Position numbers and translations under genes: made by a program. DNA of 64,000 nucleotides, taken from positions 1,164,127 through 1,228,126 of the forward strand of contig CAWBAT010000005.1 in the NCBI GenBank assembly GCA_963786955.1, in the 5' to 3' direction. The notes beneath the pieces are model-generated. The model worked only from the letters and a program-made list of their open reading frames with translations, did no database searches and was not told where the DNA came from. Origin of the DNA: an uncultured Acidimicrobiia bacterium (lineage in GTDB: Bacteria; Acidobacteriota; Terriglobia; Versatilivoradales; Versatilivoraceae). Shown piece by piece: positions 3,891 through 8,085 of this stretch (positions within the stretch are counted from its first letter, which is position 1; every line of letters starts with the position of its first letter).

Positions 3891-5543
3891 TTACCCCAAG
3901 TTCCCTTTTTTTAACTCTTCGGCCAAATAATCGGTGGCTCGCCAGGCCAAAGCCAAAATCGTCAGTGTGGGATTTTTTTCGGTAGCTGCGGGAAAGGCAC
4001 TTCCATCGACAACGAATAAGTTCTTCACATCGTGCATCTGGCAGAATCCATTGAGTGCCGATTGCTTGGGATCACTTCCCATGCGGCAAGTACCATGCTC
4101 GTGAATAGCCTTCCCTGGCTGATCCACAGTTCCTCGCTTGTAACCGATTAATTCTGCTTTGGCTGAATGCATCACCTGTTCGGCCGTGTCGTACATTTCT
4201 TCCAACATCTTTCGCTCATTGTCGCCAATCGAAAACACGATCTTGGGGAGCGGAACTCCATATGCATCGACGGGCGTCCCTTCCACGGTGATGTGGTTAT
4301 CGGCGCGGGGCAAGACTTCTCCGTAGGGGTGCATTGCGATCCAGGCCGGATAGCGCCGCTTGATCTCTTTCTTGAAGTCTGAACCAAAGCCCGGCAGCTC
4401 CGTTGCATAATGGCTGGCCCCAGGCTGACAACCAATCCCCCAGAATTGGGCGCCAAAACCGCGCAGATAGTCTCTGGGTTTGCCGCGATGGTTGAACCGC
4501 GGCATATAGAGATGCTCTCCTCCGATCCCGTCATCGTTGCTCGACGGAAAACCATAGAGGTCAGGAAGGAAACCGTGAACATGAAACCGTACCTGCTCGC
4601 AAAGGTATTTCCCGATAACTTCTGAGCTGTTTCCGATTCCGTTCGGATATTGACGGGATTTGGAATTTAAGAGGATTCGCGTGGAGTCGATGCACGACGC
4701 CCCCAGTACGACAACTTTGCCTTGTGCCCGGAATTCCTCTTTGGTATGGCGGTCAAAATACTGTACAGAACCGGCCCGGCCCCTTTCATTGGGAAGGATT
4801 CTTGCAACGACAGCGTTGGTTTGCAGGGTGAGATTTCCAGTCTCGAGGGCGTAGGGGATCAAATGATCAGCAGAACAAAAGAAGGAGGCTGTATCACAAC
4901 CCTTCCCACAGGCCCCACAATAGTGGCATGGTGGAAACCCACGATGGGGCTGGGTCAGCACTGCCCGTCGACCCGAAACCATCGGGATTCCGAGTTGATG
5001 AGCCGATCGCTTCAGGAGGAATTCTCCACAACGCATTCGCGGAGGAGGCATGTGGTAGCGGCTCCCAGGGAGGACATCGGAATCATCATTACCACCGCAC
5101 ACTCCGATGAGCTGATCAACCTTGTCATAGTAAGGTGCAATATCTTTATAGGAAATGGGCCAGGGAATTTCCCAGCCGTCGCGTTCGGCAGCCTGAAAGT
5201 CCAGGTCCCCATATCGGAGAGACACTCTCCCCCAGATGTTTGTTTTCCCTCCGAGTCCCCAGACTCGAGTTAAGTCAAACGGCTTACCCGGAGGCGTAAA
5301 ATAAGGTTGCTCTTGACGGCTCAAGAGGAAGTCGGGAGGATGCAGGCCGCGCTTCTCACGTTCACGGGCCTCATCCGGCCAAACATGCGTCCAGTATCCC
5401 TCACGCTTGAAACGCTCACCCGCGTCCAGCATCAGGACTTTGGCACCTTGGCGCGTCAAATTCCAGGCGGCTATCCCGCCAGAGGCGCCGGAACCGATGA
5501 CTACAACGTCATACATGACCTGGTTGGGAACTAAATCTTGCAT
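3891..5543 (-). CDS. GMC-family FAD-dependent oxidoreductase
   Basis: N-terminal Rossmann FAD motif [13 protein letters not shown]. 550 aa GMC architecture with conserved C-terminal HxxGTCRMG block (HEHGTCRMG). Confidence 0.85.
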
Positions 5544-6049
5544 GGGGATCTAAGTTAATATATAGAGACTGACACAATCTACAATCAGAAAAGAAACCTA
5601 CAAAGTGCGAACAATTCTAAGCTGTTGGAAAGGGAAGAACAAGCGGAAGTGAATGTGGTTTGAAAGATCGTGGCTGGCGCACTCGTGTGTTTTTTGCATG
5701 ACTGCGAAGAGTACACTGGTTGAAATTTTAAAGGCTTAAAGTTGATCCAGCTGGAAATTCTATCTTCTAAAAGTTAGGTGGTAATTTTGCTATGGACCCT
5801 CTGCCCTCCTATTGCGCCTTCCCGCAGACATGCACAAAACACATGGGTGCAACACTGGCCGTTTTCCATATTATGTTAAGGTATAATGTTTGATATTGGC
5901 ATCGGGCAAAACTGCCCGAAAACTCATGTTATCAGGGGAATCCTTCCTGTTAATCAATGGTTGGGCCATCCGAGTACTCTCGGGCTGAAGCCGAGCATAG
6001 CCGTAGGTTTCAATTGCCGCTGGCTTGCTCCTCGGTTACCATCGAAGGC

Positions 6050-6361
6050 ATGACGTTGATCCAAGCAATTCGCGCAAAGGTTTTATCGGGTGCTTTTGAA
6101 TTCTCGCAACACGCAGTTGACCAGACCATCCTACGACATATTAGCGTTCACGAGATCCGAGAAGCTATCAACGTGGGACAGGTGATCGAGGATTACCCGA
6201 ACGACAAGTATGGTCCCAGTTGCCTGATCTTGGGATTCACCCAGGCAGGACGGCCGATTCATGTCCAGTGCAGTTATGCCTCTCGCCTGTTGGTGAAAGT
6301 CATCACGACCTACCAACCCGATCCGAATGAGTGGGTCGAATACAAACAACGGAGAAAATAA
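6050..6361 (+). CDS. DUF4258-family toxin-like protein (putative toxin of a TA-like module)
   Basis: About 104 aa from an internal ATG. DUF4258-like core (FSQHAVDQTILRHISVHEIREAINVGQVIEDYPNDKYGPSCLILGF). A partner gene begins 1 nt after its stop. Confidence 0.6.
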   Translation: MTLIQAIRAKVLSGAFEFSQHAVDQTILRHISVHEIREAINVGQVIEDYPNDKYGPSCLILGFTQAGRPIHVQCSYASRLLVKVITTYQPDPNEWVEYKQRRK

Positions 6362-6362
6362 C

Positions 6363-6599
6363 ATGCCTGTTGATACGTCGGAAGAGACTTTTGTAGAACA
6401 GAAAGTAACCTACACCCTGGAAGTGCAAGGGCGTTTTATTATCATTGAGCATGTGCCCGCGCGCGTTTCGCTTCGCACAAGTGAACGATTCTTTTCTCCC
6501 GAGACGGTGGAGTGTCTCCAGAGGATTGTTTGGGAGCAAGGACCGCCCAGCCGTGTTATTGAAACCCCGGTGTTTGAGTATCCAGGCGTCATGGCCTAA
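6363..6599 (+). CDS. MqsA/YgiT-type zinc-ribbon-like antitoxin candidate (Cys ligands lost, no HTH domain)
   Basis: Pattern TYTLEVQGRFIIIEHVPARVSLRTSERFFSPETVECLQRI matches the YgiT-type zinc finger (T.Y..G....IE.VPA..C..CGE.F...ET...L..I). The CxxC pairs are replaced by Ser/Thr. The gene is tightly coupled to the upstream one. Confidence 0.5.
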   Translation: MPVDTSEETFVEQKVTYTLEVQGRFIIIEHVPARVSLRTSERFFSPETVECLQRIVWEQGPPSRVIETPVFEYPGVMA

Positions 6600-6674
6600 C
6601 CACGGCATCACCCGACGCAAAACCGCGGCGGCGGGTGATGCCTCAGTCGTTCCGCCACAGAGGAGAGGATACTT

Positions 6675-7241
6675 TTGTTGGCAATTGTGAGTGACAACCT
6701 TGTCGTTGCCCAGCCGATCTCCGGCGGTTTTAGCTGGACACTCGCCTCGCGCATTTGCCAGATGATCACCAAGGCTGAGGCCCAGTTTGGCGCTCGGGAC
6801 CGGTCGTTCACCGTGTTGGGGGTTGAGTTCAGGAATGGAGTTCCGCAAGTTTGGTTCCCCGGTAACTGCGGACATGTCGTAGTCCAACTCGGTCTATCTG
6901 CGATGCAAGACCCGAACCGAGCGTTGTTTCAACTCGCTCACGAGTGTGTGCATCTTCTGGATCCCGCACCAGGAGCGACCAATAATCTCGAAGAAGGCGT
7001 CGCCACCCATTTTTCACTTGAGTTTATGCAAGCCGAACTTGGGTTAACTTATTCGACAGGCGACGCGAAGTATGACAGCGCGTGCAGTCTTGTGCGGTTG
7101 CTGATTTCGACGAAGAGTGATTCCGTCAGAGAACTTCGACGTTTACACGGCCCTCTACGTGGCATTACGACTCAACAGATTTCAGGGATTTGCCCAAGTT
7201 TGAACGCAGGAACTGCCAGCCAGCTAGCGAACCCCTTTTAG
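6675..7241 (+). CDS. HExxH zinc-metallopeptidase-like protein (ImmA/IrrE, COG2856-like)
   Basis: TTG start 6 nt after an AGGAGAGGA Shine-Dalgarno. The motif AHECVHLL resembles the HEXXH-LL of ImmA/IrrE-type peptidases. 188 aa. Confidence 0.45.
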   Translation: MLAIVSDNLVVAQPISGGFSWTLASRICQMITKAEAQFGARDRSFTVLGVEFRNGVPQVWFPGNCGHVVVQLGLSAMQDPNRALFQLAHECVHLLDPAPGATNNLEEGVATHFSLEFMQAELGLTYSTGDAKYDSACSLVRLLISTKSDSVRELRRLHGPLRGITTQQISGICPSLNAGTASQLANPF

Positions 7242-7359
7242 CGATGCCGGCCGAGCGAGGCGCTGCACCTGAACGGGGCCGCTATACTGGTTTCGCGCGA
7301 CATCAAGTTCTTGCTGCGGCCCCGGGAGCTTGGTCGTTAGAAAGATAAAAAAAGATCGT

Positions 7360-8085
7360 ATGGATAAAGAACACATCCTTTCTGAAATCAGACGTACGAC
7401 CGAGGAAAACAGAAACAGTCCACTAGGTATCGCCAGGTTTGAGAAGGAAACTGGAATAAAAGTGTGGGATTGGAGAGGAAAGTATTGGACTAGATGGGCT
7501 GATGCACTTGCAGAAGCTGGGTACAGCAACCCTAATGAGATGCAAACCGCTTACCCGGATGAATTCTTAATTGAGAAGCTCATAGAGCTAATCCAGGAAC
7601 TTGGTCACTTCCCTACAACAACCGAGCGCAGACTCAAGGGTCATCAAGACAAGAACTTCCCAACTCATAACACATTTTCAAGATTCGGGGGCAAAGCAGA
7701 CTTGATAGAGGCTGTTCTGAAGTATTGCGATACTCATGACAAAGATGCTGAAATCGTTGCAGCCTGCAAGGTAGCCGCTTCCACCGGAAAACTTCAGCTA
7801 CGAGATAGAGCAGGACCAGAACCAATCGAATTAGGTTTTGTTTATCTGATGAAATCAGGCAAATATTTCAAGATAGGCCGAACCAATTGCGCGGAAAGAC
7901 GCGAATTTGAGCTCCGAATCCTGCTACCTGAGAAACTTGAATTGGTTCATAAGATTAAAACTGATGATCCTTGTGGAATTGAAAAATATTGGCACGATCG
8001 CTTTAAAGACAGCCGCAAAAGTGGAGAGTGGTTTGACCTTTCGCCCAGTGACGTCAAAGCCTTCAAGCGACGGAAGACGATGTAG
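7360..8085 (+). CDS. T5orf172 (GIY-YIG-like) domain nuclease with two N-terminal homing-endonuclease-associated repeats
   Basis: C-terminus GFVYLMKSGKYFKIGRTNCAERREFELRIL...KYWHDRFKDSRKSGEWFDL fits T5orf172. Two N-terminal repeats end in the F(G)xW..AL.EAG motif. The gene is markedly more AT-rich than its surroundings. Confidence 0.65.
   Translation: MDKEHILSEIRRTTEENRNSPLGIARFEKETGIKVWDWRGKYWTRWADALAEAGYSNPNEMQTAYPDEFLIEKLIELIQELGHFPTTTERRLKGHQDKNFPTHNTFSRFGGKADLIEAVLKYCDTHDKDAEIVAACKVAASTGKLQLRDRAGPEPIELGFVYLMKSGKYFKIGRTNCAERREFELRILLPEKLELVHKIKTDDPCGIEKYWHDRFKDSRKSGEWFDLSPSDVKAFKRRKTM

Follow-up and report, generated by a model that had tools for sequence, protein, structure and literature searches.

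The antitoxin MqsA of Escherichia coli is the textbook example of an antitoxin that needs zinc. Its zinc is structural and is held by Cys3, Cys6, Cys37 and Cys40, cysteines reported to be perfectly conserved, and the N-terminal domain alone (MqsA-N) neutralises the toxin MqsR, which it binds as a folded domain without structural change (PMC2791442). When MqsA lacks its zinc or is oxidised, the protein unfolds and a motif recognised by ClpX becomes accessible; ClpXP then degrades it, and the loss of zinc or the oxidation has been proposed to act as the switch that uncovers this degron (PMC8808172). The domain family DUF4258 has been listed, with 17 DUF4258-MqsA fusions and as undescribed in the literature, among the toxin families with a BECR fold in toxin-antitoxin (TA) systems (PMC11980606), and a 2026 preprint places it among the colicin-like BECR domains, overlapping Ntox49 (bioRxiv 10.64898/2026.08.28.747851). 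In the literature, no description of Cys-free MqsA-like antitoxins, no use of the term 'YgiT-type' and no published experimental test of any DUF4258 toxin or of the Cys-free antitoxin family was found.

Gene organization and translation signals

The window, i.e. the whole stretch of 64,000 nt of DNA that was analysed and to which all positions refer, contains a short gene directly downstream of a DUF4258 gene. The first-pass annotation had described its product as a YgiT-type zinc-ribbon antitoxin homologue that has lost all four cysteine ligands and the HTH domain. The gene pair and its translation signal are as follows:

6050-6361, plus strand: DUF4258 toxin gene, 103 aa; match to Pfam PF14076 with E=1.6e-22 over the whole model
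6351-6355, plus strand: GGAGA, putative ribosome-binding site of the antitoxin as read from the sequence, 7 nt before the ATG and within the end of the toxin gene
6363-6599, plus strand: antitoxin gene, ATG at 6363, TAA at 6597-6599, 78 aa, coordinates including the stop codon

The toxin stop codon (6359-6361) and the antitoxin ATG are separated by a single base, a 1-nt gap that suggests coupled translation of the two genes. The toxin start was placed at the ATG at 6050, since the best homologues have for the most part a length of 101-107 aa and begin at the methionine equivalent to 6050. The list of open reading frames and public gene calls (P0270 and the locus L002) give a DUF4258 protein of 134 aa that starts from the ATG at 5957, and the 31 extra N-terminal residues (5957-6049) probably represent a mis-called start. 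The GC content of the TA genes showed no clear deviation from that of the flanks. Neither an operator-like inverted repeat nor a plus-strand sigma-70-like site was found within positions 5500-7400, a result that is uninformative.

Homology of the antitoxin to the YgiT/MqsA zinc ribbon

The direct profile alignment of the window antitoxin to the NCBIfam model TIGR03831 (YgiT_finger) resulted in E=5.4e-4 and 20.2 bits, exactly at the curated cutoff of 20.2, with residues 9-35 of the antitoxin aligned to positions 7-34 of the 46 profile positions. In Pfam nothing was found above noise, and the window protein itself remained below the match level of TIGR03830 and PF15731 in the profile searches. 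Profile comparisons indicated that the transitive link through its relatives is much stronger than this borderline direct match. Homologues of the antitoxin make up 3,572 clusters in a collection of 5.8 billion proteins, the best 120 of which are nearly all 74-80 aa long and 67-100% identical to the window protein. A search profile made from 32 Cys-free close homologues matched 882 of 1.84 billion cluster representatives at E<=1e-3, 303 of them at E<=1e-10, and it retrieved proteins of the same length with both CxxC pairs at E~1e-22 (P0151 with E=1.2e-22, and also P0154). The sequence of P0151 reads in outline MTCDLCG...VPASVCSQCGAKLFS...ETPVFDF. In a mixed alignment of 26 Cys-free and four-Cys members, TIGR03831 was matched by 25 proteins with a best E-value of 4.9e-15, TIGR03830 (the MqsA family) by 18 and the Pfam family MqsA_antitoxin (PF15731) by 11. 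The antitoxin profile produced only noise against the PDB sequences, e.g. MerR-like regulators at E about 0.2, and none of the toxin, the antitoxin and the HExxH protein encoded downstream was matched in PADLOC or PHROGs.

The AlphaFold model of the antitoxin, obtained with moderate confidence (pLDDT 70.5, pTM 0.47), consists of two strands at residues 10-21 and 24-36 forming a long hairpin, a strand at 42-44, a helix at 46-59 and a strand at 62-68, the latter belonging to the tail and modelled at lower confidence. When this model was compared by Foldseek with 350,542 PDB chains, the four top matches were all the N-domain of E. coli MqsA (3ga8, 3gn5_A, 3gn5_B and 3hi2_A), with probabilities of 0.99-1.00 and TM values of 0.48-0.54, although the E-values were weak (0.04-0.16) despite the first ranks. 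The predicted structure has the elements of the MqsA-N fold, i.e. a long twisted beta-hairpin, a short strand and one long helix, and is not unrelated to a zinc ribbon. The proposed YgiT-type homology was thus supported by the profile match at cutoff, the transitive link and the fold matches: the window protein is genuinely homologous to the YgiT/MqsA-N zinc ribbon, with all four Cys ligands replaced. With regard to its length of 78 aa and the missing DNA-binding domain the first-pass annotation was also correct, no match to an HTH domain being present in either Pfam or NCBIfam.

Loss of the zinc ligands as a family trait

In the mixed alignment the four zinc-ligand columns are occupied in the window protein by V3, S6, S36 and T39, and neither of the CxxC pairs is present. 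The positions of the former knuckles and of the conserved tail in the gene are the following:

6369-6380, plus strand: position of the first CxxC knuckle, codons 3-6 (V-D-T-S), with V3 and S6 in place of Cys according to the alignment and the hmmalign table of ligand columns
6468-6485, plus strand: position of the second knuckle (CxxCGE), codons 36-41 (S-L-R-T-S-E), with S36 and T39 in place of Cys
6546-6584, plus strand: conserved C-terminal tail, codons 62-74 (PSRVIETPVFEYP), common to the Cys-free and the short four-Cys members

All four ligands are therefore gone, as had been noticed before. The N-terminal Cys pair, previously called absent, indeed contains no cysteine; however, it was substituted in place and not deleted, since the ligand columns align to residues of the window protein throughout. 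The sole cysteine of the protein, C51, is located outside the site and is not conserved, with R, Q or S found at this position in the homologues.

The interpretation of this loss as a feature of a single gene had to be abandoned. Among the best 120 of the 3,572 clusters, 115 are devoid of Cys at all four ligand columns, and a single one is present in each of the remaining five. A further set of 149 new representatives at 50% identity, taken from the best 150 of the 882 profile matches, formed a graded series of proteins that all have the same length and the C-terminal ...ETPVFEF tail. Four cysteines at the ligand columns were present in 11 of the 149 representatives (both CxxC pairs, e.g. in P0151), two in a single one, and one in 53, where it was always the third ligand (VPARVC.ETGE). 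The remaining 84 had none and carried S, N or D in the third column; as Cys-free members were favored by the search profile, the proportions of these classes are not those of the whole YgiT family. The fourth ligand column was occupied by Thr in every one of the 149 representatives that lacked the full Cys set, and the second one often by Trp in the Cys-poor members.

The sequences without the zinc site are otherwise well conserved. An alignment of the 32 close homologues contained 19 invariant columns, including E8, T39 and E41 near the former knuckles; in the tail P62, R64 and V70 were invariant and T68 and P69 at least 90% conserved. The window protein deviates at S40, which replaces a Gly conserved in more than 90% of these 32 homologues. 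Comparison of the window gene with its homologues gave pN values of 0.14-0.22 and pS values of 0.66-0.80 (saturated), and the antitoxin gene is, on this measure, under strong purifying selection.

A rough neighbour-joining tree built from 96 full-length sequences placed the 11 with four Cys in a single clade apart from the Cys-poor members, while in the rest of the tree sequences with C, S, N or D in the third ligand column were intermingled. This topology, although the tree is crude, fits a single ancient loss of the site, after which the last cysteine disappeared repeatedly. A scan of genomes, with one genome per species, detected 152 loci of the antitoxin family, the best 80 of which belonged to Acidobacteriota, Binatia, Planctomycetota, Cyanobacteria (many of them Microcoleus), Chloroflexota, Latescibacterota, Poribacteria, Desulfobacterota and others. 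The Cys-free state is an old and selected state of the family, which comprises more than 3,500 protein clusters from at least eight phyla, and the window protein is best described as a member of a zinc-free branch of short, DUF4258-associated YgiT-type antitoxins.

The predicted DUF4258 toxin and its pairing with the antitoxin

The upstream gene encodes a DUF4258 protein, and no match to the MqsR family (PF15723) was found in it. Its homologues form 4,192 clusters, most of the best ones with 101-107 aa, a family size similar to that of the antitoxin. All 28 invariant columns in an alignment of 34 toxin sequences, including H21, R29, H71, R79 and K83, are kept in the window copy. The AlphaFold model of the toxin (pLDDT 88) had as its top Foldseek match 7vd7_A, the toxin of a Salmonella TA complex (TM 0.59/0.64), followed by BrnT, MqsR and HigB2, and a BECR/RelE-like fold of the RNase type is predicted from these matches. 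MqsR itself was only the 17th fold match, with a TM value of 0.44; because of this low rank and of the placement of DUF4258 as a colicin-like BECR domain, the interface of the toxin need not copy that of MqsR:MqsA. Matches of the toxin profile to Kelch repeats in a PDB sequence search were spurious.

In 57 of the best 80 of the 152 loci, covering at least eight phyla, the gene directly upstream on this strand encoded a DUF4258 protein, which corroborates the partnership proposed in the first reading of the sequence. The two genes are adjacent, co-oriented, tightly spaced and conserved as a pair, as is characteristic of type II TA modules. The four-Cys relatives are arranged in the same way: P0154 and P0198 are each encoded immediately downstream of a DUF4258 gene, which overlaps by 4 nt in the case of P0198, while P0151 is preceded by a truncated gene. 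Since P0154 and P0198 likewise follow DUF4258 genes, the combination of DUF4258 with a short YgiT-type protein that has no HTH is older than the loss of the cysteines. The four-Cys proteins nearest to the window antitoxin are 75-81 aa long and HTH-less as well as DUF4258-paired, which contradicts the claim that the HTH domain had been lost: as far as the sequences go, nothing shows that this lineage ever had one, and the window gene did not lose it.

No recognizable DUF4258 gene was present upstream in the other 23 of the best 80 loci (e.g. L011, L013, L039, L049, L060 and L064). These look like orphan antitoxins, which are full-length and conserved, and the domain can therefore persist without its partner. 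Several of the orphan loci in Microcoleus share a similar stop-rich stretch upstream. In the window toxin the family motif SYPSRPL reads SYASRLL (P77A and P80L; residues 77-80, window positions 6278-6290), the two positions being at least 90% conserved in the family. The antitoxin has S40 (6480-6482) where the family has G, and the loci L017 and L019 combine L80 in the toxin with G40 in the antitoxin, giving no clear co-variation.

Neighboring genes and fusion variants

The gene that follows the pair was considered in the first-pass annotation as a possible carrier of its transcriptional control:

6675-7241, plus strand: gene of an HExxH protein, 188 aa, motif AHECVH, 75 nt downstream of the antitoxin gene

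No match to this protein, including to DNA-binding families, was found in Pfam, NCBIfam, PHROGs or PADLOC. Its homologues form 211 clusters of about 190 aa, all of them unnamed, and three that were sampled had unrelated, partly mobile neighborhoods without DUF4258 or YgiT genes. The HExxH gene and the T5orf172/MUG113 gene that follows it were absent from all of the best 80 of the 152 loci; they accompany the pair only in L002, which has the same gene set as the window. The locus L001 encodes an identical antitoxin and has no HExxH gene. The HExxH gene is thus a neighbor of the TA pair and not its component.

Some further observations were made in these neighborhoods. Around the sampled members of the HExxH family, integrases, an HTH_3/Peptidase_M78 gene and a Gp49/HTH_37 TA pair were found. 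The gene at 7330-8085 (plus strand) encodes a protein of 251 aa with a C-terminal MUG113/T5orf172 (GIY-YIG-like) domain, a sub-threshold HNH_repeat match, a weak PADLOC match to PDC-S57 and several PHROG matches. This gene, the HExxH gene and the TA pair are flanked by the genes at 3891-5543 (minus strand) and from 8277 (plus strand), which by eye resemble a GMC-type oxidoreductase and a ferrochelatase, respectively. On another metagenomic contig, the identical antitoxin of L001 (194-430) is preceded by the 3' end of a toxin gene and followed, in this order, by genes for a 460-aa protein with a faint HTH_32 match, for DUF525 and for a prolyl isomerase, an arrangement indicative of either a second copy or another insertion site in a close relative.

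Fused forms of the Cys-free domain were also encountered. In three Candidatus Poribacteria loci (L056, 3920-5023; L072, 3908-5014; L080, 3911-4987) a protein of about 345 aa, encoded immediately downstream of a DUF4258 gene, begins with this domain, and its C-terminal extension of about 270 aa has a weak, sub-threshold match to HEPN_AbiU2 (E=0.006), so that these loci may represent a module of a toxin and an antitoxin-HEPN fusion. In Candidatus Latescibacterota (L079, 3755-4201) an in-frame fusion joins a HicB-like N-terminal domain (PF15919, E=1e-7) to a Cys-free domain that is missing its first approximately 12 residues. No DUF4258 gene is present upstream, and the fusion may be a recombinant antitoxin.

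Proposed mode of action and alternative explanations

The window protein is probably an antitoxin that is independent of zinc and redox state, does not bind DNA and neutralises a BECR-fold DUF4258 toxin by direct binding. The computed evidence comprises homology, ligand substitutions, fold similarity, synteny, purifying selection, family size and distribution; toxicity, RNase activity, the mode of binding, metal independence and the lack of autoregulation are deductions. The genes at 6050-6361 and 6363-6599 would constitute a two-gene, toxin-first type II TA module, whose antitoxin would be a stand-alone homologue of MqsA-N with the replacements C3 to V, C6 to S, C36 to S and C39 to T. It would fold without metal as a long twisted hairpin packed on one helix and, by analogy with MqsA-N, would bind the toxin 1:1 as a folded domain, blocking the access of RNA. 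Neutralisation through the retained fold, as suggested in the initial reading, is made plausible by the resemblance of the model to MqsA-N and by the ability of MqsA-N alone to neutralise MqsR (PMC2791442). The C-terminal PxRxIETPVFEF tail is a candidate contact element that probably helps toxin binding, perhaps by contributing a strand to the complex or by covering the active site. Having no DNA-binding domain, the antitoxin would not autoregulate its operon as MqsA does, and the balance of expression would most likely be kept by translational coupling (a 1-nt gap here and an overlap in relatives). Without a Cys4-Zn site, its stability would not be governed by zinc occupancy or thiol oxidation and might be either constitutive or under some other control. 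The presumed metal independence is deduced solely from the absent Cys ligands.

Several other explanations of the same data were considered. The protein might be a stable, long-lived immunity partner of a colicin-like nuclease of the Ntox49 type, with neither a proteolytic trigger nor regulation by the partner. The placement of DUF4258 in the colicin-like BECR branch, overlapping Ntox49 (preprint 10.64898/2026.08.28.747851), is in line with such a role, as are the prediction of a partner that is folded throughout and does not bind DNA, and the loss of the Zn/Cys switch, which removes the only known trigger of instability in MqsA (PMC8808172). However, the toxin of 103 aa has no delivery, secretion or pre-toxin domain, the compact two-gene cassette in variable mobile contexts of many phyla is typical of TA systems, orphan partner genes are common, and the domain family of the partner is that of a classical type II antitoxin, which makes an immunity function unlikely. 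Binding of some metal through non-Cys ligands (E7/E8, H30, S36, T39 and E41, or the lone Cys36 in the one-Cys members) would agree with the invariance of E8, T39 and E41 and the at least 90% conservation of E7 in the 32 homologues, and with the retention of exactly one cysteine, always the third ligand, in 53 of the 149 representatives. It is nevertheless quite improbable: Thr and Ser coordinate zinc poorly, H30 is variable among close homologues (H, N, Q, K or D), Cys36 is freely swapped for S, N or D in interspersed branches of the rough tree, and Trp at the second ligand column of many members suggests hydrophobic filling rather than coordination.

Three-component TA systems with a separate regulator exist. 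The window antitoxin could accordingly be limited to neutralisation, with the transcription of the operon controlled by the HExxH protein (6675-7241), whose gene is located 75 nt downstream on the same strand. The transfer of regulation to this protein, put forward in the first-pass annotation, was rejected on the lack of co-occurrence, its gene being found in none of the best 80 of the 152 loci and not even in L001 with the identical antitoxin; the unrelated neighborhoods, free of DUF4258 and YgiT, of the three homologues sampled from its 211 clusters, and the missing match to a DNA-binding or any other family in Pfam, NCBIfam, PHROGs and PADLOC further render such an arrangement highly improbable. 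That the gene is a decaying remnant, a zinc finger on its way to a pseudogene, might be read from the four missing ligands and from the replacement by S of G40, otherwise more than 90% conserved. This is refuted by the conservation of the family, i.e. thousands of full-length conserved homologues across phyla, with 67-95% identity among the best 120, by the strong purifying selection and by the intact partner toxin, and decay is extremely unlikely as an explanation.

The direct-binding, zinc-independent antitoxin favored here can be taken one speculative step further. The Cys-poor clade might conceivably represent an ancient re-engineering of the MqsA fold, in which a polar and hydrophobic network (E8/T9, T39/E41 and Trp) took the place of zinc, making the antitoxin insensitive to oxidative stress and to a shortage of zinc, with the tail as the real inhibitor and without any transcriptional feedback mediated by the antitoxin; this extension is doubtful as a whole. 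If it were true, the zinc/redox trigger of E. coli MqsRA would be a lineage-specific add-on and not a property of the fold.

Significance

Some pipelines label relatives of the window protein as 'YgiT-type zinc finger domain-containing protein', so the homology is already implicit in the databases. The name is an annotation trap, being given to proteins that are called a zinc finger yet are unable to bind zinc through cysteines. Thousands of clusters in soil, freshwater and marine phyla keep the fold, the partner and the gene order without the four-Cys set, and, judged by its sequences, the family indicates that the MqsA fold can be metal-independent. The four-Cys, one-Cys and zero-Cys forms, which share their length and toxin partner, represent a comparison set for the role of zinc, and DUF4258, a large family of predicted toxins, obtains a defined partner. 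The practical importance is modest, since the loss of Cys from zinc ribbons is a known evolutionary pattern.

Comparison with known systems

The window antitoxin has the domain family and the predicted fold in common with E. coli MqsA (PDB 3GA8, 3GN5 and 3HI2), and the numbers of the ligand residues are nearly equal (3, 6, 36 and 39 in the window protein and 3, 6, 37 and 40 in MqsA). Toxin-first gene order and a RelE-like/BECR partner are likewise common to E. coli MqsRA and the window pair. However, in contrast to MqsA, which needs zinc for its stability, the window antitoxin has no Cys4 zinc site, and it has no Xre-HTH domain, hence neither HTH dimerisation nor promoter binding. Its partner is DUF4258 instead of MqsR. 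It thus lacks two hallmarks of the MqsA family, the HTH domain and MqsR as partner, as well as the chemical hallmark of the YgiT zinc finger, the two CxxC pairs, although it falls into the domain superfamily of MqsA-N. It carries in addition the PxRxIETPVFEF tail, which is absent from MqsA and begins where the linker of MqsA to its HTH domain starts.

Other partners of DUF4258 have been proposed, namely the HicB-like protein of Synechocystis (ssr2377, PMC4963859) and Ncr1610-sORF1 (bioRxiv 10.64898/2025.12.20.695498), both of them small proposed antitoxins encoded adjacent to the DUF4258 gene. The Synechocystis pair slr1421/Ncr1610-sORF1 was considered as a published member of the present family and rejected, as its peptides (IIHEGDYMAEVQVELTYTDHDW... 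and VYHLTPVVVA) are by eye unlike the family; Ncr1610-sORF1 looks like a different antitoxin family. The four-Cys, DUF4258-paired YgiT-type proteins (e.g. P0151, P0154 and P0198) have the same length (75-81 aa), tail and HTH-less architecture and are 36-48% identical to the window protein, but keep both CxxC pairs and form a clade of their own in the rough tree.

Zinc ribbons with lost cysteines are also represented by the C-/C+ forms of ribosomal proteins. Another precedent for zinc ribbons losing their cysteines is Cren7/Sul7 (PMC5906684). In both cases, as presumed for the family described here, the knuckle was replaced while fold and function persisted, and whole lineages are metal-free. 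However, Cren7/Sul7 and the ribosomal proteins belong to other families with other functions, whereas here the ribbon is part of a putative toxin-neutralising module, in the model system of which the zinc site is a regulatory switch.
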